Part shown: positions 4,017 through 61,431 of the stretch, one piece after another
Layout: the number at the start of each line of letters is the position of its first letter
Numbering within the stretch: the stretch's first letter is position 1
DNA from: Elusimicrobia bacterium UBA6262
Lineage (GTDB): Bacteria > CAYTYR01 > UBA6262
NCBI GenBank assembly: GCA_002441095.1
Contig: DJVG01000034.1
Coordinates: 61,072-125,071, forward strand
Direction: 5' to 3'
DNA: 64,000 nt
Position numbers and translations under genes: made by a program
The notes under the pieces: model-generated
Database searches by the model: none
What the model saw: the letters and a program-made list of their open reading frames with translations, nothing else
Told to the model about the DNA's origin: nothing

Positions 4017-5904
4017 TATCTACCTCAGCTATTTCGGTTATTAATATGCTTTTTGGTTTAAGCGTGAACCGCTGCAACAACTTGCCTTTATACATAACAA
4101 TTTTCTCCTCCTCTTTAGAAGCATCATTAAGCAATATTAGTTTCTCATCGACATGCATGATATATATTCCCGTTCCCGGCTCGCCATAAAGATATAGCGG
4201 AGCCCAGGGATATTGCTGGTCCTTATTACAAAGGTAAGGCCACAATGTCCGGGCAAATGCTTTAACCTTCAGATAAGGGATACTGATCCGATATCCTTCG
4301 CCATACTGTTCGTAACTTGCAGTCTCTCCGCAAGACAAATAAATTCCGCCAGATTTTACCCAATCCAGTACTAAGTCCTGGGTCAGGCTGTGGCCATAAG
4401 GATGGCTATAGCTGAATATAAACCGGTAGTCATCAAGGATATTATCCTGCACTAAGGTGTCATCGATTATATCTAAATCTATAGAGGACCGTAAATTACT
4501 GGCTAAAGCCAGATTAAGGTTCAAGGACCCCGGTTCCAGGGCTGCGGAATCAGCACTGACCAGCAAAGCGGCTTCCACTCTTCTCGAACCATTGACCAGG
4601 TAAGGGTAATTATTGGCCAGGTTCTTGGCTACCTCGCTTGGCCGCCCAAGAGGGATACAGTTATTGCTTTTCCCGGTGCAAGACACTCTTGTACCATAAT
4701 CTATCCCGAATAATGTTTTAAAATACAAACCCTCTATATCTCCGGAGGCATAATCAAAGACCCTCATAACTACTTCATCAGGCGCGGTTTCTATGGTTTC
4801 TTCAGTCTCTATCGCGGCATGATAATGTTTAGCCGCCGTTGATAACAAGCTCTTATTGGAAAAACTTTCAGCGTAATTACTGCCTAAATTTGTAATCCTC
4901 ACACCGGCATTAAGCTCTCCAGCCAGCTTGGCCTGGCCGGCGAAATCCGCTCCGGTAATCACATCCCCATATCCCCCGGTAACCAGGTAAACAGGTTTCC
5001 CCGGAAAAAATTGTTTGGTCAATATCAGCCATTTTCTGGCATATGCAGTCATAGTTTGCATATACCATCTGACAAAGGTCAGATAATGGTTGCGTCCCGA
5101 GATGTCCTTAAGATCCCTATTCAGTAGCCGGTTTTCATACCATTGCTCTAAATTCCTGGTTACCGGCTGGTCCAGGGCAAATAGCTCATGCCAAATTTTC
5201 CTGAAAACCTTATATAAAAGATCTTGGTGCAGGTTAATCTTCTTTATCGGCCAATCAATATTATCCCAAGACGCATAAGCTGTACCCCAGTCCTTATTCA
5301 AGTTATCCAATATCACATATTTCTGAGTGCAATAATTGACAAAATCCTGCCGGGCATACTGGTCATTGCACCACCACCCGCTATGTTTATGCCCCTGGCG
5401 GTTAATCCCATCTGATGAGGGATAGATGGCTTCACCCCAGACACCGCTAATCCCTATCAGCACGCTTTCTATAACTTCATTCTGGTCATACCGCTCAGCG
5501 ATCATCCTGATGAATTTTTCAATATACTCAGGTAAAAAAGGATTCCAGATGGATTGGATATCGCATTCCTGCCCATGTTCAAGGCACTTGGCAAATACTG
5601 ACTGGGAAGAATCACTGAACCATTCAGGTATTGAATAATTGGGTCCTAAAATTATAAAAGGCACCCATTTTAGTTTATGCGCAATGATTTTTTTTACCAC
5701 TTCATCGTAAGCGCTGAAATCAAGACAGCCTTTTACCGGTTCGATCATTGACCAGTAAACATACGATTGGAGTGAAGTAATGCCATATTTTTTCACTTCT
5801 TCATAAACGCTGTCCGCCAGCAGTTCCGGTTTTACCCTGCCGAACGCCTGCCATTGCTGGATGATATGGGGTTTAGCCGCTATTTTCTGAGATGGAGTTG
5901 ACAT
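4009..5904 (-). CDS. glycoside hydrolase family 42-like protein (beta-galactosidase-like TIM barrel plus trimerisation-type domain)
   Basis: 631 aa; N-terminal YVYWSMIEP...WGEAIYP TIM-barrel-like segments and a GH42M-like central region (ALLVSADSAALEP...DLDIIDD). Assigned by overall resemblance only. Confidence 0.4.
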   Translation of the reverse strand: MSTPSQKIAAKPHIIQQWQAFGRVKPELLADSVYEEVKKYGITSLQSYVYWSMIEPVKGCLDFSAYDEVVKKIIAHKLKWVPFIILGPNYSIPEWFSDSSQSVFAKCLEHGQECDIQSIWNPFLPEYIEKFIRMIAERYDQNEVIESVLIGISGVWGEAIYPSSDGINRQGHKHSGWWCNDQYARQDFVNYCTQKYVILDNLNKDWGTAYASWDNIDWPIKKINLHQDLLYKVFRKIWHELFALDQPVTRNLEQWYENRLLNRDLKDISGRNHYLTFVRWYMQTMTAYARKWLILTKQFFPGKPVYLVTGGYGDVITGADFAGQAKLAGELNAGVRITNLGSNYAESFSNKSLLSTAAKHYHAAIETEETIETAPDEVVMRVFDYASGDIEGLYFKTLFGIDYGTRVSCTGKSNNCIPLGRPSEVAKNLANNYPYLVNGSRRVEAALLVSADSAALEPGSLNLNLALASNLRSSIDLDIIDDTLVQDNILDDYRFIFSYSHPYGHSLTQDLVLDWVKSGGIYLSCGETASYEQYGEGYRISIPYLKVKAFARTLWPYLCNKDQQYPWAPLYLYGEPGTGIYIMHVDEKLILLNDASKEEEKIVMYKGKLLQRFTLKPKSILITEIAEVDNV

Positions 5905-5911
5905 AGCGCGA

Positions 5912-6661
5912 CTATTTTACAGCCTTGATAATAACTCGCCCGTGTACCGGCATATTCCTCCTGAGCAATCCTTTAGCCAGGTCTTTCCAATGTAATGGGG
6001 TTTTATGGAGGACCTCAAATCCCGTAAAGCCAACATCCCGCAGCATCGCTTTTATAGCGCTGATAGTAGGCAGGTGCCAATTAGTGGGATCCTGATTAAA
6101 AGTAGAACCTTGCACATATTCCAGCAATGGCCGGTTATTCATATTTTTCAGGTAAGCTGTTTCTATGATCAGTGTTCTTTTGCAAACCTGGGCAATTTTT
6201 TCCAAGGCCAGGACCGGATACTTCAAATGATATAAAACCCCTAGAAACAAAACCAGATCAAATTCTCCCAGCTTCTTCGGGTCAATATCATATACATCCA
6301 AGTCAACATATTTAACTTTAGACTGCAGGATCTCTTTAGCTACCTGAAATCCCTTAGTGCCCAAACTGGCATATTTTACTTCATCAGCCCTTTGCATGCG
6401 ATACAGGTTATCAATAGCCACAACTTCCCTGGCTCCTCTTTTTTCACATTCGAAGCTGTAGAAACCGTCCCAGGCGCCTATATCCAGGACTCTTTGCCCT
6501 TTTAAATCTCCGGGCAAAGCAAGCCGGTTTATAGTAATGAGATTATCCATTACTTTACCCGGCGTAATAATTCCTTCCCCTAAAGGGATAGAATGCCCCC
6601 AAAAAGGTACTTCTTTGATCTTAGCTAATATCTGTTCCTTGGACATCGTCATTCCCGGCAC
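5912..6661 (-). CDS. class I SAM-dependent methyltransferase
   Basis: VLDIGAWDGFYSF...EVVAIDN matches motif I and the post-I acidic residue. Confidence 0.7.
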   Translation of the reverse strand: MPGMTMSKEQILAKIKEVPFWGHSIPLGEGIITPGKVMDNLITINRLALPGDLKGQRVLDIGAWDGFYSFECEKRGAREVVAIDNLYRMQRADEVKYASLGTKGFQVAKEILQSKVKYVDLDVYDIDPKKLGEFDLVLFLGVLYHLKYPVLALEKIAQVCKRTLIIETAYLKNMNNRPLLEYVQGSTFNQDPTNWHLPTISAIKAMLRDVGFTGFEVLHKTPLHWKDLAKGLLRRNMPVHGRVIIKAVK

Positions 6662-23994: not shown

Positions 23995-24135
23995 TGTCGC
24001 TAGTCTCTAGTCGCTGGTCGCTAGTCTAAATACAGTCTCTGGTTACTAGTTTCTGGTCGCTAGTTCTTATGGTATTATTATTTGCTCTAATGCTTTTACT
24101 AGCAACTAGATACCAGCGACTAGCGACTGTCTTTA
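23995..24135. repeat. family-E palindromic element (GTCGCTAGTC / GACTAGCGAC arms)
   Basis: gtcgctagtctctagtcgctggtcgctagtc...ctggtcgctagttc / ctagcaactagataccagcgactagcgactg. Confidence 0.7.
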
Positions 24136-25733: not shown

Positions 25734-25750
25734 TGAAATACCTCTACATA

Positions 25751-25842
25751 GTTGCGAGTTTCCAGTTGCGAGTTGCGAGTTAAAAAACCTGACCTTGATC
25801 TTTTATTGTTTAACCGCGAACTGCGAACTGCCAACCGCGAAC
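25751..25842. repeat. family-A element variant (3x AGTTGCGAGTT then GCGAACT repeats)
   Basis: agttgcgagtttccagttgcgagttgcgagtt...aaccgcgaactgcgaactgccaaccgcgaacc. Confidence 0.65.
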
Positions 25843-25847
25843 CGTTT

Positions 25848-40827: not shown

Positions 40828-42318
40828 CTACTCCAGTCCTTCTTCTGCCATTTCCACTGCCTTCACCATTGCCCTGGCCTTATTCACTGTCTCCTGGTAC
40901 TCCTTAGCTGGGTCACTGTCTGCGACAATACCAGCCCCAGCCTGCACATAAGCATTATCACCCTTGATGATTATCGTCCGAATAGTAATACAGGCATCCA
41001 GGTTACCGCTGAAGGAAAAATAGCCCACACATCCGGCATAAGGCCCGCGTTTGACTGGTTCCAGTTCATCAATGATCTCCATCGCCCGTATCTTCGGCGC
41101 CCCGGATACAGTCCCAGCCGGGAAACAAGCCCGTAAGACGTCAAAAGAGTTTTTTCCGCGGCTCAATTTGCCGACCACATCTGAGACTATATGCTGAACA
41201 TGGGAATATTTCTCGATCACCATTAACTCCGGCACCTTAACTGTATGAAAATCGCAAACCCGGCCGATATCATTGCGCCCCAGGTCAACCAGCATAATAT
41301 GCTCAGCCCGTTCTTTCGGGTCAGCCAGCAGCTGCTTTTCCAATAAAATATCTTCTTCGTCTGTTTTGCCCCGCGGCCGCGTACCAGCAATTGGCCGGAC
41401 TTCCACTGTGCCCTCTTCTTCACGCACCAGGATCTCGGGAGATGTACCGACGAGATATTCCCCATTGCATTTCAGGAAATACATATAGCTGGACGGGTTA
41501 ATCCTCCGCAAGGAGCGGTAAATATCAAAAGGACTGGATTTGATCTTCATTTTAAAGCGCTGTGACAACACCACCTGAATAATATCTCCGGCCTTGATAT
41601 ATTCTTTGGCTTTAACGATCATTTTTTTGAAAGCTGCTAAGGTAAAATTAGATTCCATTTTTAAAGCTGGTTTAAGGTGTGGTTTGTGCAGCGGGATCTC
41701 TGCCGGCTTACGCAGTAGGGCGATCAGCTTATCTATCTTGGCGCAGGCTTCTTTATATACTTTCTGTTCATTTTTTTCCACATGAGCGCAGGATACTACC
41801 TTGATCGTATGGTTCACATGGTCAAAGATGAGGATAGTATCCGTGAACATAAAGACACTGTCAGCCAGTTTCAGGTCATCCGGGTTCTGGTCAGTTTTTT
41901 TGAGACACGGCTCAAAGAAGCGCACCATATCATAACCCATATAACCGACTGCCCCGCCATAAAAACGCGGCAAGCCCCGGTGATGCACCGGCCGGTAGTC
42001 TTTCATCAATTGCTGCAGGATATAGAGCGGATCATTGCCTTTCAGATCAATATTTATGTTTATACCTTTACAGATAATCCTGGCCTGGCCGCCTTTGGAT
42101 TCCAGAATAATGGAAGGACTGGCAGAAATAAAGGAATAGCGCCCTAATTTCTCGCCCCCTTCCACGCTTTCCAGCAGATAAGCATACTTGGCGTCCTGGG
42201 ATATCTTGTAAAACGCAGATACCGGTGTTTCCATATCTGCCAGGATCTCTTTGTAAACCGGTATTAAATTATATTTTTTCGCTAATTTCTTAAATTCTTT
42301 AAATTCTGGGTAAAACAT
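40828..42318 (-). CDS. trpE: anthranilate synthase component I
   Basis: LLESVEGGEKLGRYSFI and C-terminal chorismate-binding motifs. Confidence 0.9.
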   Translation of the reverse strand: MFYPEFKEFKKLAKKYNLIPVYKEILADMETPVSAFYKISQDAKYAYLLESVEGGEKLGRYSFISASPSIILESKGGQARIICKGININIDLKGNDPLYILQQLMKDYRPVHHRGLPRFYGGAVGYMGYDMVRFFEPCLKKTDQNPDDLKLADSVFMFTDTILIFDHVNHTIKVVSCAHVEKNEQKVYKEACAKIDKLIALLRKPAEIPLHKPHLKPALKMESNFTLAAFKKMIVKAKEYIKAGDIIQVVLSQRFKMKIKSSPFDIYRSLRRINPSSYMYFLKCNGEYLVGTSPEILVREEEGTVEVRPIAGTRPRGKTDEEDILLEKQLLADPKERAEHIMLVDLGRNDIGRVCDFHTVKVPELMVIEKYSHVQHIVSDVVGKLSRGKNSFDVLRACFPAGTVSGAPKIRAMEIIDELEPVKRGPYAGCVGYFSFSGNLDACITIRTIIIKGDNAYVQAGAGIVADSDPAKEYQETVNKARAMVKAVEMAEEGLE

Positions 42319-42671
42319 CTTAACCTCATATTATTTAATTAGTATTTTCCGTGTATCAGGTAACTGTCACTATTTGTTCGCTCCAGTGTCGATTTTTAGC
42401 GTCAAAGGTCTTGCGTCAACTCGGTGCCGAGAAACTCGCCCCTTGGGCTCAGACAATCTCGGCATCCAGCAGCCAAAGATACCCTCGTTGCTTGCAAGCA
42501 TGCTTTGACTAAAATCGACAAGCTCGCTCAAAATAATGACAAGTTCCCTGATCTGTATGGTTGCCGTTATCATCAGAGTAACTGGGGGTGGCGAGGGTTT
42601 GATTTTTGCCAGGGTTATTGATGCTTTTGTCCCGATATAGTTATATCGGGAAGACAGGACCCCAAGTAAAC
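42319..42671 (-). ncRNA. 353-nt trpE 5' leader containing blocks conserved with the polA leader (family F); function unknown
   Basis: Blocks gtatcaggtaactgtcactatttgtt (42353-42378), caaaggtctt (42403-42412) and cgacaagctcgctcaaaataatgacaagttccctgatctgta (42516-42557) recur at 60220-60405. A perfect hairpin cccgatata..tatatcggg sits at 42631-42650. Confidence 0.4.
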
Positions 42672-43061
42672 CTATTTCTTATATACTTTCTCAGGATCAA
42701 AGACCCTTTTACCTTTTACTTTCAATTTTCCTTTTTCCAGTACCCGGTAAAAACAACTCTTAAACCCGGTGTGGCAGGCTGCCCCGCCTACTTGTTCTAT
42801 CTTTATCACCAGCGCATCACCGTCGCAATCAAGGCAAACTTGCTTTACCTTCTGGATATTGCCGCTGGTCTCGCCTTTCAACCAGTATTTGTGACGTGAG
42901 CGTGACCAGTACCAGCATTGCTTATCGCGCAGGGTGCGCTTGAGCGCTTCCTTATCCATATAAGCCAGCATCAGGATATCACCTGTTTTGTAATCCTGTA
43001 ATACTGCCGGCACTAAACCATTCTTGTCAAACTTCACTTGCCTTAAAATAACCTGGGTCAT
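42672..43061 (-). CDS. hisI: phosphoribosyl-AMP cyclohydrolase (monofunctional, no HisE fusion)
   Basis: 129 aa; ...[10 protein letters not shown]...C.GD. Confidence 0.85.
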
Positions 43062-43828: not shown

Positions 43829-43902
43829 AGCGTTAAGCGGGTAGCGTTTAGCGTATAGAAAATCTTTTAAAACTATCCGCTATACGCCATACGCTATACG
43901 CC
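43829..43902. repeat. family-B palindromic element (TATACGC / GCGTATA heptad arms)
   Basis: gcgttaagcgggtagcgtttagcgtatag-aaaatcttttaaaa-ctatccgctatacgccatacgctatacgcc. Confidence 0.75.
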
Positions 43903-52418: not shown

Positions 52419-52537
52419 TTGAAACCTTTCTGTTGCGAATTACGCGAATTAAAAGACGCGAATTACACGAATGTTCTTATTCGAGGTATTCGCTGTCCTG
52501 CCTACCGGCAGGCAGGCATTCGAGTTATTCGTATTAT

Positions 52538-53894: not shown

Positions 53895-53915
53895 GAACGT
53901 CTTCCTCCTCTTTTT

Positions 53916-53993
53916 AGCGGGTAGCGTTTAGCGGGTAGCGTATAGAAAATCAATATTCTTTTCCTATACGCTATACGCCATACGCTATACGCT
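53916..53993. repeat. family-B palindromic element
   Basis: gcgggtagcgtttagcgggtagcgtatag-aaaatcaatattctttt-cctatacgctatacgccatacgctatacgc. Confidence 0.75.
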
Positions 53994-56056: not shown

Positions 56057-56136
56057 GGCGTAAAGCGTATGGCGTATAGCGGATAGTAAGAAGAAATTGT
56101 TTTCTATACGCTACCCGCTAAACGCTATCCGCTATC
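56057..56136. repeat. family-B palindromic element
   Basis: gcgtaaagcgtatggcgtatagcggatag-taagaagaaattgttttc-tatacgctacccgctaaacgctatccgc. Confidence 0.75.
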
Positions 56137-56959: not shown

Positions 56960-57007
56960 ATAACCTCAAAAGAAGTTGCGGGTTTCGAGTTGCGTGTTGC
57001 GAGTTAT

Positions 57008-57531: not shown

Positions 57532-60192
57532 TCATTCCAGGTCTCTCCAATTGGTGCCGACGCTGACATTGGCCTCTAAAGGTACATCCAGTTTTAAGGC
57601 TGTTTCCATTTCCTGCTTGATCATCTTGGTTAACTGCTTCTCTTCTGCTTTTGGCACTTCAAATATCAGTTCATCGTGAACCTGCAGCAGCATTTTCGCC
57701 TGGAAGGTTTCCTGCTTCAGTTTTTTAGCTATATTGATCATCGCAATCTTGATAATATCCGCGGCTGTCCCCTGGATCGGCATATTGATCGCTACCCGCT
57801 CGGCAAAAGAGCGGATGTTCCTGTCCTTGGCATTAATTTCCGGCAGGTATCTCCGGCGGTTCAGCAGGGTCGTGACAAAACCGTCATGCCGGGCTTTTTC
57901 CACTATCTTTTCCATATATTCTTTTACGCCACTGAAACGGGCAAAGTATTTATCAATATAATCCTTGGCTGTTGCTGCGTCTATACCCAAGGCCTGGGAT
58001 AGTCCATACGGGCTCATGCCATAGGAAAGGCCAAAGTTAACTGTTTTGGCTATGCGTCTTTTTTCATCATCTACTTCCTCTGGTTTCAAGCCGAATATCT
58101 CACACGCGGTATGGCTATGGATATCTTCATGGTTATGGAATGCCTGCTTCATATGTTCATCGCCAGACATATGCGCCAATACCCGCAGGTCGATCTGCGA
58201 GTAGTCGGCAGACACAAATATACATCCTTCTTTGGGAATGAACGAGCGCCTGATGGACCGCCCGATCTCGGTCCGGATCGGGATATTCTGCAGGTTCGGC
58301 TCGCTGGAGGATAATCTCCCGGTATTGGTCACGGTCTGGTTAAATGAAGTGTGCAACCGGCCGGTTTTGGGATTGATCATTTCCGGTATCGGATCAATAT
58401 AGGTTGATTTAAGCTTGGCCAGCTCCCGGTATTCAATTATTCTCTTCGGCAGATCATGCATAGCCTGCAGTTGGCGCAGGACTGATTCATTGGTTGACGC
58501 GCCGGTTTTGGTTTTTTCTATGATCGGCAGTCCCAGTTTTTCAAAAAGGATCTTGGATAATTGCTGGGGTGAGTTAATATTAAACTCAGTATCAGCTATT
58601 TTGTAGATCACCTGTTCCAAAGCAACAATTTTCCCATCGATCTCTTTGGATAATTCTTTCAGGTATGGCAGGTCCACCAGTATCCCCGCGTATTCCATCC
58701 CTGCCAGGATCTCCAGCACCGGCATTTCTACGTCATAGAATAACTTATCCAGTCCTTTTTCTTTGAGCAAGAATGATAGTTTCTGTTTTAACCGCCAGAC
58801 CATATCCACCTGGGCACAGGCATATTCGCTAACTCTTTCCACCTGCACCTGGTCCATAGTGATCTGTTTGGCCCCTTTGCCGATCAGGTCTGTGATCGGG
58901 ATCATTTTATATTGCATATATTCAGCAGAGATATCCCCCAGACTGTGGTTAAGTTTGGATGGATTGATGAGATAAGAAGCGATCATAGTATCAAAAGATA
59001 TACCATTCAGTTTCAGGCCTTCATTTTTCAGGACCAGCAGGTCATATTTCAGGTTTTGCCCGTATTTCTTTATCTGCTCATCTTCAATAATGGATTTAAG
59101 CAGGTCCAGGGTTTTCTTTTTATCTTGAGCTGGGGCACCCAGGTAGTTGTGAGCCACGGGTAGGTAATATGCTTTTTTTTCTTCAAAACATAATACCAGG
59201 CCAACTATTTCCGCCAACATGGGCTCGCTGCTATTGGTTTCCAGGTCAATAGAAACTTCATTTTTCTGCTTTATTTGGGAGGCGATCTTTTCCATCTCGG
59301 CTGATGTAGTAATAACTTCATAGCACGCGTCTTTTTCCGTGCTCTGATCGATCAATTCAGTAGTCAAGGACTTGAATTCATATTTATGGAACAAAGCCAT
59401 GGCTTTTTCCTGGTCCAAAGGGACTGGTTTCAGGTCTTCCAAGGTCATATTGAGCGGCACATTTTCTACCAAGGTCACCAACTCTTTTGATTTAAAAGCC
59501 AGTTCCTTGCCTGCCTCCATTTTATTCTTTACTTTAGCCGGCATTTTGTCCAGGTTCTGATACATATTCTCAATAGTCCCGAATTCTTTTACCAGCTGCA
59601 AAGCGGTTTTTTCCCCTATGCCTGGTACTCCAGGAATATTGTCGCTGGAGTCGCCGCATAAGCCTAAATAGTCTTTGATCTTATCAGCGTCAAACCCAAA
59701 TTTTTCCTGCACTTCCTTTTCAGTGAAAAGTACTCCCTTGGGCTCGCTCAGTACTTTGATATGTTCATCTACCAGCTGGAGTATATCTTTATCCCCGCTG
59801 ACCACAACCACATCCACATCCTGCTTTTCTGCTTGCCGGGCAATAGTAGCGATCAGGTCATCAGCTTCATAGCCAGGCATCCGGAAAACCGGTATCTTGA
59901 ATGCTTCTACCATTTCCTGGACCATGGGTATCTGCGTTTTTAGTTCAGCAGGAGTTTCCTTGCGGGTAGCTTTATACTGTTCGAAGGCTTTGTGCCGGAA
60001 AGTCGGATGCGGGGAATCAAAGCAAACTGCCAGGTAATCAGGCTGTTCACGCTTAATTATCTTGAGAAGCATGCGGGTAAAACCATAGACGGCATTGATC
60101 ACCAGGCCTTGGGAATTGGTGAGCATCGGGAGGGCATGGAACGCGCGGTGGATATAGGCATGTCCATCTATGATATAGAGTTTCTTTTTCAA
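57532..60192 (-). CDS. polA: DNA polymerase I
   Basis: 5' nuclease, 3'-5' exo-like and Pol A motifs (RRxAKxxNFGxxYG -> RRIAKTVNFGLSYG); TTG start preceded by GAGG. Confidence 0.9.
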   Translation of the reverse strand: MKKKLYIIDGHAYIHRAFHALPMLTNSQGLVINAVYGFTRMLLKIIKREQPDYLAVCFDSPHPTFRHKAFEQYKATRKETPAELKTQIPMVQEMVEAFKIPVFRMPGYEADDLIATIARQAEKQDVDVVVVSGDKDILQLVDEHIKVLSEPKGVLFTEKEVQEKFGFDADKIKDYLGLCGDSSDNIPGVPGIGEKTALQLVKEFGTIENMYQNLDKMPAKVKNKMEAGKELAFKSKELVTLVENVPLNMTLEDLKPVPLDQEKAMALFHKYEFKSLTTELIDQSTEKDACYEVITTSAEMEKIASQIKQKNEVSIDLETNSSEPMLAEIVGLVLCFEEKKAYYLPVAHNYLGAPAQDKKKTLDLLKSIIEDEQIKKYGQNLKYDLLVLKNEGLKLNGISFDTMIASYLINPSKLNHSLGDISAEYMQYKMIPITDLIGKGAKQITMDQVQVERVSEYACAQVDMVWRLKQKLSFLLKEKGLDKLFYDVEMPVLEILAGMEYAGILVDLPYLKELSKEIDGKIVALEQVIYKIADTEFNINSPQQLSKILFEKLGLPIIEKTKTGASTNESVLRQLQAMHDLPKRIIEYRELAKLKSTYIDPIPEMINPKTGRLHTSFNQTVTNTGRLSSSEPNLQNIPIRTEIGRSIRRSFIPKEGCIFVSADYSQIDLRVLAHMSGDEHMKQAFHNHEDIHSHTACEIFGLKPEEVDDEKRRIAKTVNFGLSYGMSPYGLSQALGIDAATAKDYIDKYFARFSGVKEYMEKIVEKARHDGFVTTLLNRRRYLPEINAKDRNIRSFAERVAINMPIQGTAADIIKIAMINIAKKLKQETFQAKMLLQVHDELIFEVPKAEEKQLTKMIKQEMETALKLDVPLEANVSVGTNWRDLE

Positions 60193-60618
60193 GGTAAAAA
60201 CCTCATTGTCTGGCTCTGCGTATCAGTGAACTGTCACTATTTGTTTCCGCCAAAGAGACTGGCGGACTCCCTCTGGTCGCGCTTGCCAAAGGTCTTTAAA
60301 CTCAATAATTGCTTCAGCCGCAGGCTGATCCGCCGATCTTTTTGGAGGATTTGGGCTGAAACACGACAAGCTCGCTCAAAATAATGACCAGTTCCCTGAT
60401 CTATACAGTGTATAAGAGGCGAGCGCGGCCGCTGATGTCGTGTAGAAAACCCTGCCTGCCGGCAGGCAGGGTTCGAGAGTCTTGAGTTGGCATGGACTCT
60501 TCATCCCCGTACTTTGGGGAACTCAAGCGAGAATTGAGTGCGTTTTCCTCGCAGGGGAAAACGACACGCTTTTCGGAACGACGCAGCGTGACAGCGAGCC
60601 CTATTATATCTTAATAAA
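60193..60618 (-). ncRNA. 426-nt polA leader / suhB trailer with blocks conserved with the trpE leader, plus several perfect hairpins; function unknown
   Basis: Blocks at 60220-60245, 60286-60296 and 60364-60405 match the trpE leader. Hairpins: ccgccaaagagactggcgg, ccctgcctgccggcaggcaggg, cgttttcctcgcaggggaaaacg. Confidence 0.4.
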
Positions 60619-61431
60619 TTAGTATTTATCAAAAACGACCCGGCAGTGGAAGTCTTTCAGCCGACGGACCAGTATTTTGCTCATCTGCGCATGGAGTAAC
60701 CCATTTGTGGCCAGGATCTCCTGGTCATAATGGGAATATTTACTGCCATTAAATTTGGACAGCTTCCCGCCGGCTTCTTTCACTACCAGGATAGCTGCCG
60801 CCGTATCCCAGGGCTTGAGACCGATTTCCCAGAATCCGTCAAAACGCCCGCAGGCCACATAGCACAGATCCAGCGCTGCAGACCCCATCCGGCGTATCGC
60901 CTGGGACGTCATCAAGAAATCAACAAAATGTTCGACATTGGAATCCCGGGCATCTTTAATTTCATAGGCAAACCCGGTACAGAGCAGGGATTTTTTCATG
61001 TCTTTGGTCTTGGAAACTTTTATTTTCTTTTTGTTTAGATAAGCGCCGCCGCCCTTGGTAGCATAAAAAAGTTCATTATGCATGGGGTCATAAACAACTC
61101 CGACTGCCGGCTGGCAGTTGATCTCCAGTGCGATCGAAACGCTGAAATACGGAAAGCCATGGGCAAAATTAGTTGTACCGTCTATCGGGTCAACGATCCA
61201 CCGGTAACCTTTTTTTTCCCTCTCGCCACCGCTTTCCTCACCTAAGAAGAGATGTTTGGGGAACTTTCTGAGGAGATGCTCTTTGATCAACCGTTCAGAT
61301 GCCTTGTCCACATCAGTGACCAGGTCAATCGCGCCTTTATAATTAATCGTTTTTATTTTCCCGACGCGCCGGCGGATCAATTCTCCGCTTTTCTTCGCCG
61401 CCGCAATCGCTTCTCCAAGAAATTTGTTCAA
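60619..61431 (-). CDS. suhB: inositol monophosphatase family protein
   Basis: WIVDPIDGTTNF metal-binding motif. Confidence 0.8.
   Translation of the reverse strand: MNKFLGEAIAAAKKSGELIRRRVGKIKTINYKGAIDLVTDVDKASERLIKEHLLRKFPKHLFLGEESGGEREKKGYRWIVDPIDGTTNFAHGFPYFSVSIALEINCQPAVGVVYDPMHNELFYATKGGGAYLNKKKIKVSKTKDMKKSLLCTGFAYEIKDARDSNVEHFVDFLMTSQAIRRMGSAALDLCYVACGRFDGFWEIGLKPWDTAAAILVVKEAGGKLSKFNGSKYSHYDQEILATNGLLHAQMSKILVRRLKDFHCRVVFDKY

Follow-up and report, generated by a model that had tools for sequence, protein, structure and literature searches.

The 64,000-nt window analysed here (Elusimicrobia bacterium UBA6262, contig DJVG01000034.1) contains a gap of 426 nt, at positions 60193-60618, flanked by the start of polA and the stop of a suhB-like gene, both on the minus strand. 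This gap is probably built of non-coding repeat modules that form hairpins, occupy intergenic sites and are nested into a composite; the modules would belong to a lineage-restricted family (at the level of the genus) of uncultured, Omnitrophota-like bacteria. Best supported is the view that these elements are a novel family of a known type, comparable in kind to miniature inverted-repeat transposable elements (MITEs) and to the BOX, Correia, ERIC and BIME elements. A preliminary description of the gap had proposed a ‘structured ncRNA or repeat composite’, that is, a non-coding RNA or an assembly of repeats. The second of these terms is borne out, as the modules recur at many unrelated intergenic sites, in three other metagenome-assembled genomes (MAGs) and in metagenome contigs; of the first, a conserved fold survives as a property of the repeat family, but the evidence does not support an RNA gene or leader dedicated to this locus, there being no Rfam match, an empty locus in relatives with 72-90% identical SuhB, and copies in both orientations beside unrelated genes.

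Two modules, the ‘core’ next to polA and module ‘L’ next to suhB, are described throughout on the minus strand, which is the direction of both genes (coordinates in Table 1). The core is 167-263 nt long, with conserved ends around a variable interior. In every full copy the two ends, ATCAGGGAACTnGTCATTATTT and AAATAGTGACAGTTnnCTGAT, are complementary to each other, such that the elements carry terminal inverted repeats; these close an imperfect stem of ~35 pairs around small hairpins, GATCAGGGAACTGGTCATTATTT pairing with AAATAGTGACAGTTCACTGATAC, and the predicted pairs (2-44 with 204-245) are formed in 98% of alignment cells. The interior differs between the two cores of the window, that proximal to polA and that proximal to trpE, and defines two subtypes. 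Subtype 1 is the commoner, with 16 of the 22 distinct full-length cores, the trpE copy among them; subtype 2 comprises the polA copy and those at L004a, L009, L010, L027 and L035 (designations of this form, not to be confused with module L, refer to related loci). Between the polA-proximal core and the subtype-2 copy of L009, which lies in another genome at an unrelated locus, identity is 94%; the fold of the polA-proximal core, in which the two ends are paired, has a z-score of -4.5. The trpE-proximal core (z = -5.0) and its counterpart upstream of trpE in L038 share 93% identity, against 87% for trpE itself. The fold of the whole gap, with GGCUCGCUG... paired to ...GCAGAGCC, is far more stable than chance would give on either strand (z = -4.1, minus; z = -5.6, plus). 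At three loci (L003, L014, L015) the 5' conserved block of the core stands solo, without the rest of it. ORFs (open reading frames) within the gap are just 33-48 aa long and unconserved; a 46-aa frame seen in some subtype-1 copies was considered as a conserved small ORF and rejected on inspection, being broken by stops or frameshifts in others.

The second core also accounts for the blocks that the preliminary description had reported as shared with a trpE leader, both of which we recover: 60359-60405 matches 42511-42557 at 91%, and 60215-60252 matches 42348-42385 at 82%, with the exact cores of both blocks found at these two places only in the window, against 0-0.18 chance matches expected. 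An Rfam scan had been proposed for the region; with Rfam 15 and gathering thresholds the whole window gave no hits, and permissive scans of 60100-60700 and 42250-42720 gave best E-values of 3.9-7.3, at 10-21 bits against thresholds of 45-115. A known RNA family was rejected on these scans of the window and both intergenic regions, which yielded no credible match and agree with the earlier failure to find RNase P, tmRNA or SRP RNA signatures.

Module L (~180-200 nt) begins with GGCTCGCTGTCACGCTGCG and ends in ...CATCAGCGGCCGCGCTCGCCTCTTATACACTGTATAG, its first base lying 18 nt downstream of the stop of the suhB-like gene. Full copies occur elsewhere at L002, L003, L005, L015, L026, L031, L035 and L038 (twice), and partial copies at L012, L013 and L022-L024. 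Every stem listed in the preliminary description is present in the gap: ccgccaaagagactggcgg, at 60247-60265, falls in the core, whilst three others are hairpins of module L, namely cgttttcc-tcgcagg-ggaaaacg at 60541-60563, cttgagtt/aactcaag at 60481-60488 and 60520-60527, and ccccgtactttgggg at 60505-60519. The first hairpin of L varies between copies in a compensatory manner, as judged by eye from the alignment (GTGTCGTTTTCC/GGAAAACGCAC, GCGTCGTTTTCC/GGAAAACGCGC and GAGTCGATTTCC/GGAAATCGCTC). The idea that L derives from the core by inversion and divergence, turning the unit into one giant palindrome, was tried and dropped: the local alignment score lies within the range of shuffles, and short motifs alone are shared. 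The start of the module (GCTCGCTGTCACGCTGCG) resembles heptamer-type tandem units of the kind described at the end of this text.

The remaining listed stem, the 22-nt perfect palindrome ccctgcctgccggcaggcaggg, is indeed there, but one base away from where it had been placed (60450-60471, not 60449-60470), and the reported sharing with 52497-52516 is confirmed by a copy at 95%. It is absent from all other aligned L copies. On the minus strand it is followed by TTTTCT, ~150 nt past the suhB stop; a scan scored a 6-pair stem here, which the perfect palindrome lengthens (by eye), and in matching the pattern of an intrinsic terminator it looks like a candidate terminator of suhB. Related GC-rich palindromes number just three in the 266 kb of sequence searched. 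The second, CCTGCCTACCGGCAGGCAGG at 52497-52516, sits within an array of ATTCGAG/GCGAATTAC-type repeats, and the third, a looser copy, is at L010 2168-2187; the palindrome could be mobile, as a small unit, or serve as a terminator stem.

The inverted repeats of these modules include ATCAGGGAAC..., GGCTCGCTGTC... and TTTACCGGGGTCCTGTCTCGGG.... The outer repeat GACAGCGAGCC, of which the tail between core and polA is a degenerate copy, mirrors the GGCTCGCTGTC start of module L, and this tail runs into the Shine-Dalgarno sequence (GAGG) of polA; better-preserved tails follow the core in L004b, L011 and L016. The outer end of module M, which partners the trpE-proximal core, is TTTACTTGGGGTCCTGTCTTCCC, an inverted copy of a tail that occurs after other cores, and a terminal motif ATCAACCCGAGACAGGACCCC..GTAAA that follows some cores is found inverted at the outer end of M. 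The M terminal motif, TTTAC..GGGGTCCTGTCTCGGGTTGAT, thus recurs inverted behind other cores, which hints at inverted repeats of a third layer, outside the others. Copies of M (42553-42671; L006 1000-1211; L017 6735-6947) have hairpins of their own, e.g. CCCGATATAACTATATCGGG. Nesting also occurs within the core: at L002 1681-1948, and likewise in L031, a second element of ~270 nt, with its own inverted repeats of ~24 nt (CAGTGTAGTACTTCTATCATTTCTT / AAGAAATGATAGAAGCACTACACT), sits in the loop of a subtype-1 core. Another hairpin of the L002/L031 core has a further insertion of ~40 nt, common to L028.

As to distribution, a 25-mer from the 5' block of the core, searched for exactly in one genome per GTDB species, has 17 matches, in three MAGs (STB_132, STB_115 and binchicken_co220_96), and a 20-mer matches 10 metagenome contigs; conservation outside this genome, which had been named as a check, is thereby established for three other MAGs and two metagenomes. 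Profile searches give ~30 copies of the core and 12 of L, truncated and interrupted ones included, in at least four genomes. None of the copies falls within an ORF of 100 aa or longer. The genomes that carry them are congeners; between genomes, cores share 93-94% identity, compared with 82-93% for coding DNA. A bias in orientation was ruled out both against flanking genes and against GC skew: relative to flanking co-directional genes, 10 copies are sense and 10 antisense (20 sites, from the GTDB loci and the window), and orientation relative to local GC skew is about even. The 3' end of the core tends to fall near a gene boundary: it lies 14-36 nt from the start codon in eight of the 10 sense copies, at 71-74 nt in L004a and L002, and 841 nt from the next called gene in one further sense copy, L016; in antisense copies it lies 9-56 nt from the stop codon. 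Other modules are placed on the 5' side of the core. Short-read contigs end within or just before L or core at L001, L022-L024, L012 and L037, and this fragmentation of assemblies by the repeats means that copy numbers in MAGs are underestimated. A blastn search against plasmids and phages found no similar sequence. The motif GCTCGCT was considered as a genome-wide signal and set aside, the excess (12 copies against 5.7 expected) coming largely from the elements themselves.

Related genomes show the composite to be an insertion: in them suhB and polA overlap or lie very close together. In L018 (SuhB 72% identical to that of the window) the suhB stop overlaps the polA start (TAATG), in L021 (74%) the two genes are separated by 62 nt with one simple hairpin, in the relative P0008 (77%) by 16 nt, and in L036 (90%) by ~43-55 nt with four heptamer repeats; L025 (88%) has a PhdYeFM antitoxin / YoeB-ParE toxin pair at 5902-6404, and no repeat composite. 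Set against these four numbered loci without the element is L013 (90%), where a shortened L and a core of subtype 1 occupy the same site as in the window, together with L022-L024 (90%), in which L directly follows suhB and the contigs end inside L. The contig of L001 (100%) also ends inside L, and in L012 (91%) L and core adjoin suhB in inverted orientation. Comparison with L013 shows core ends 100% identical to those of the window and an exchanged interior, subtype 1 in place of subtype 2; the same kind of interior swap separates L007 from L009. The start codon of polA follows the distribution of the element, being ATG in all genomes that lack it (in L018 within TAATG, at 5810-5816; in L036 at 1455-1470) and TTG, 8 nt after GAGG, in the window and L013, the two element-bearing genomes with a readable start. 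In both, the end of a 5-codon mini-ORF (ATGAGG...CCTTGA; 60190-60205 in the window) overlaps the polA TTG; this may simply be the Shine-Dalgarno sequence GAGG.

The hisI-trpE junction behaves in a similar manner, with M and core in the window, L and the same rare core subtype but a different variant of the closing stem in L038, 142 nt without core or L in L039 (the start of which resembles the end of module M), and 23 nt with neither in L040. After trpE there is L alone in L038, heptamer arrays in the window and 5 nt in L039. From one congener to another, then, copies at a shared site vary in the subtype of the interior, the variant of the stem, the module they are joined to or the direction in which they lie.

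What is kept through this turnover is the fold. A consensus built from 14 subtype-1 cores has 70 pairs, with 97.4% of cells in standard pairs, against 36-40% when partners are slid, and six of the pairs have changes on both sides, a number reached in 1 of 500 shuffles. The trpE-proximal cores of the window and L038 provide the clearest instance: in the alignment, which we inspected, their interiors are ~97% identical, and the inner closing stem is swapped on both arms, from GTCATTATTT/AAATAGTGAC in the window to GGTTGTTTTT/AAAAATAACC in L038. This amounts to five consecutive compensatory pair changes, with the wobble position kept (T.G to G.T), and both variants fold into the same architecture. 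The sense strand is ~10 kcal/mol more stable in 20 of 22 cores; strand-specific folding was rejected as evidence of an RNA, as the advantage follows from G-richness in shuffles and z-scores are about equal on both strands. Pairs at which G-U is the commonest combination number five on the sense strand and one on the antisense strand, a weak hint of a role as RNA.

Synthesising these findings, we favour a family of repeats with the attributes of MITEs: short, non-coding, multi-copy and dispersed, with terminal inverted repeats and presence/absence at orthologous sites. The modules would have spread, or been exchanged between copies, as DNA, in the manner of miniature inverted-repeat or BOX/Correia/ERIC-type elements; gene conversion between copies may homogenise them, and selection may act on their ability to fold as single strands. 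At the locus described here, insertion would have uncoupled polA from suhB, with polA now having its own Shine-Dalgarno sequence and TTG start. On this view read-through from suhB would also place a long structured 5' leader before polA, holding a terminator-like hairpin as well as a duplex (20 bp or more) plausible as a substrate of RNase III. There is neither an orientation bias nor a conserved external promoter to point to a role as RNA.

Several points weigh against this interpretation. No transposase or other mobilising gene lies beside any copy, a weak negative over ~300 kb of related sequence, and the flanks have no consistent target-site duplication, with the three comparisons of filled and empty sites too divergent to align base by base. 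Most copies were found by exact-word search, so conservation of the 5' block is overstated. Moreover, conservation above that of coding DNA, compensatory changes and invariant internal-loop bases would also fit a functional RNA. As to a target site, the L and core of L005 are flanked by TAATT on both sides, which could be chance. No autonomous relative, with the same inverted repeats and a transposase, was seen in the same ~300 kb, the MAGs being fragmented at the repeats. At L014 1488-3513, beside a solo 5' block of the core, three extra genes are found. The conserved genes on either side of them (364 aa and 348 aa) have only module L and core sequence between them in L002 and L003. One of these extra genes was considered as an autonomous parent and discarded, its 377-aa product resembling, by eye, the YhcG/DUF1016 type and not a transposase.

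Amongst known systems, the BOX elements of Streptococcus pneumoniae are modular (boxA-boxB(n)-boxC), non-coding, intergenic and multi-copy, occur in both orientations and have no transposase of their own. The elements described here resemble them in having terminal modules that pair around a variable middle, a predicted stable fold, and a position near genes in either orientation, but there is no sequence similarity, the phylum is another, the middle consists of alternative hairpin sets and not of a variable count of identical boxB units, and further modules (L, M, tails) with their own inverted repeats are joined on. Correia elements of Neisseria (NEMIS/CREE) are 100-200 nt long and bear a TA target duplication, an IHF site and, at their termini, imperfect inverted repeats that exceed 20 nt; they have interior subtypes, lie near gene starts or ends, if co-transcribed give a duplex of sufficient length for RNase III, and their ends can create promoter or terminator signals. 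Imperfect inverted ends, interior subtypes, closeness to gene boundaries, a potential RNase III duplex and possible promoter or terminator signals are shared with our elements, in which, by contrast, no target duplication could be made out in the junctions compared, no sequence similarity is found, and the interior folds into co-varying, conserved hairpins. The ERIC (IRU) sequences of enterobacteria are imperfect palindromes of ~127 nt in transcribed intergenic regions, with size variants arising by internal indels and a mobilising agent that is not known. Either orientation, and presence or absence between related species at the same junction, are common to both; unlike ERIC, to which they have no sequence similarity, the composites here reach ~400 nt and are nested, with multiple sets of inverted repeats.

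It is possible, if doubtful, that the core is not a passive MITE and that it works as a folded single strand of RNA or of DNA (ssDNA), which would place it in an undescribed class. Such a class could be a structure-recognised mobile or recombining element, unrelated to REPIN/RAYT and attC/IntI, or a multi-copy structured RNA of the Omnitrophota lineage; the co-varying stem of ~35 pairs, the kept wobble, invariant purine-rich internal loops, the interchangeable ‘cassettes’ of interior hairpins and a conservation greater than that of coding DNA would all fit.

If that strand were RNA, the core, and perhaps L, would be a multi-copy structured RNA gene, trans-acting or mobile, with its own internal promoter, which would make genomic orientation irrelevant, and with the conserved closing stem and internal loops serving as the functional fold of the RNA or as a site for protein binding. 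We think this unlikely. The compensatory changes, the conservation of copies between genomes beyond that of coding DNA, the invariance of the internal-loop bases GAGCGAGC/GGAGCGAAC, the strand asymmetry in G-U pairs and the weak promoter-like matches at or in the elements all speak in its favour, but no Rfam family is matched, the 5' flanks differ between copies, such that there is no conserved external promoter, and the energy advantage of the sense strand is due to its G-richness. The truncated, interrupted or mosaic state of many copies is atypical of RNA genes, and interior subtypes are interchangeable at one site.

If it were ssDNA, the core would be a folded recombination substrate akin to an integron attC site or a REP/REPIN unit, moved by a recombinase or HUH enzyme encoded elsewhere. 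The lack of an adjacent transposase is what one would expect of elements mobilised in trans, the whole unit of L and core is inverted at one site, and the ends co-vary to keep the stem, with the wobble at the same position in both variants. As in attC, imperfect inverted ends surround a variable centre, a bulge and internal loops are conserved, and covariation keeps the folded strand. However, on inspection the ends are AGGGAAC and GTTCACT or GTTACCT, and the 7-nt attC core sites RYYYAAC...GTTRRRY are absent; the length of 167-263 nt compares with 57-141 nt for attC; and the copies lie in mixed orientation between housekeeping genes, with no cassettes and no same-orientation cassette arrays. 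REP, BIME and REPIN elements are built of self-palindromic units of 20-40 nt with a conserved 5' tetranucleotide, and their RAYT is encoded elsewhere in single copy. A mosaic of palindromic units in intergenic regions, and selection on hairpin formation, are features in common; here, by contrast, the conserved ends are not self-palindromic and pair with each other across 130-220 nt. The ~300 kb of related sequence covered revealed neither a RAYT gene nor another candidate enzyme gene, and the even orientation relative to GC skew also counts against such a substrate, which we judge quite improbable.

A cis-regulatory leader, attenuator or riboswitch of polA, with a related one for trpE, is very improbable and, by orientation and distribution, essentially refuted. 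Both copies in the window are sense and lie 29-36 nt upstream of a start codon, and an alternative pairing is possible between the 3' part of L and GAGCGAGCTTGTCGTG of the core, as would suit a leader; yet antisense copies make up half of the total, and many of these face a stop codon 9-56 nt away, the downstream genes are functionally unrelated, the orthologous polA and trpE of close relatives have no element, and no cis-regulatory family of Rfam is matched. The reading as an ordinary spacer, a suhB terminator with chance stems, draws on the terminator-like palindrome and TTTTCT on the coding strand and is refuted by the evidence for a repeat family: the folds have z-scores of -4 to -6, several genomes carry the blocks at numerous loci, and the palindrome is a private insertion in an otherwise repeated module.

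In place of a candidate novel ncRNA there is now a family of repeats whose modules, boundaries, subtypes and empty sites are defined. Its members break short-read assemblies of the lineage (contigs end inside L), mark points of difference in gene order between congeners, and have come between tightly coupled genes, for example suhB and polA, an overlapping pair in one relative. To our knowledge the Omnitrophota are uncultured and their non-coding DNA is essentially undescribed, and a search of the literature on Omnitrophota intergenic repeats found nothing relevant. Repeats that keep their fold and are more conserved than coding DNA are a reasonable place in which to seek a new mobilising enzyme, or a role at the level of RNA (processing, termination, stabilisation).

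Table 1. Modules, blocks and neighbouring genes at the suhB-polA gap and upstream of trpE (window positions).
Feature	Position	Strand	Basis or remark
Core, interior subtype 2 (179 nt)	60222..60400	-	nhmmer E = 8e-40; ATCAGGGAACTGGTCATTATTTTGAGCGAGCTTGTCG to GGCGGAAACAAATAGTGACAGTTCACTGAT
5' conserved block of core	60356..60400	-	5' arm of closing stem and invariant GAGCGAGCTTGTCG; identical or nearly so in all copies
3' conserved block of core	60222..60252	-	3' arm of closing stem (AAATAGTGACAGTTCACTGAT)
Hairpin ccgcca-aagagac-tggcgg in subtype-2 interior	60247..60265		kept in all subtype-2 copies
Tail after core (ACGCAGAGCCAGACAATGA)	60203..60221	-	degenerate copy of outer inverted repeat GACAGCGAGCC
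Repeat module L (~180-200 nt)	60402..60600	-	nhmmer E = 6e-54 over full model
22-nt perfect GC-rich palindrome	60450..60471		insertion private to the window's L copy
Second core, subtype 1 short form	42355..42552	-	nhmmer E = 2e-56; 36 nt upstream of trpE; the ‘trpE leader’ blocks of the preliminary description
Partner module M	42553..42671	-	5' side of trpE-proximal core; same module precedes cores in L006, L017 and L028
Sigma-70-like promoter match TTGATA-18-TATAAT (11/12)	60603..60632	-	pattern match only; overlaps last suhB codons and stop, directed into module L
suhB-like inositol monophosphatase gene	60619..61431	-	ORF list; PF00459 in exact protein
polA	57532..60192	-	ORF list; TTG start at 60192, 8 nt after GAGG

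With regard to the flanking genes, homologues of the SuhB protein are annotated as inositol monophosphatase and come mostly from Candidatus Omnitrophota, the nearest named ones at ~55-60% identity. The polA orthologues have the Pfam DNA_pol_A and 5'-3' exonuclease domains, and the PolA of the window is 92% identical in amino acids to that of L013. The spacing of the promoter match at the end of suhB is not kept in the relatives L013 and L022, whose sequences were compared by eye; -10-like hexamers also occur just upstream of several other copies of L and core.

Separately from these modules, most intergenic regions between co-directional minus-strand genes in 22000-57100 of the window contain tandem arrays of 4-5 units with a period of 7 or 8, for example at 23996-24128, 25750-25844, 43829-43902, 53915-53993, 56058-56134 and 56974-57005, and also at L036 1412-1460 and L025 5814-5840; their units include AGTTGCG, CTATACG, GTCGCTA and AACCGCG. 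We know of no described equivalent of these paired heptamer arrays. Each is paired with an inverted array 10-80 nt away, giving hairpins of 25-35 bp with a mismatch at about every seventh base (z = -2.6 to -6.7), and the same families of units recur in different intergenic regions, which results in complementarity at a distance, e.g. between 53915-53949 and 56100-56134 at 97%.

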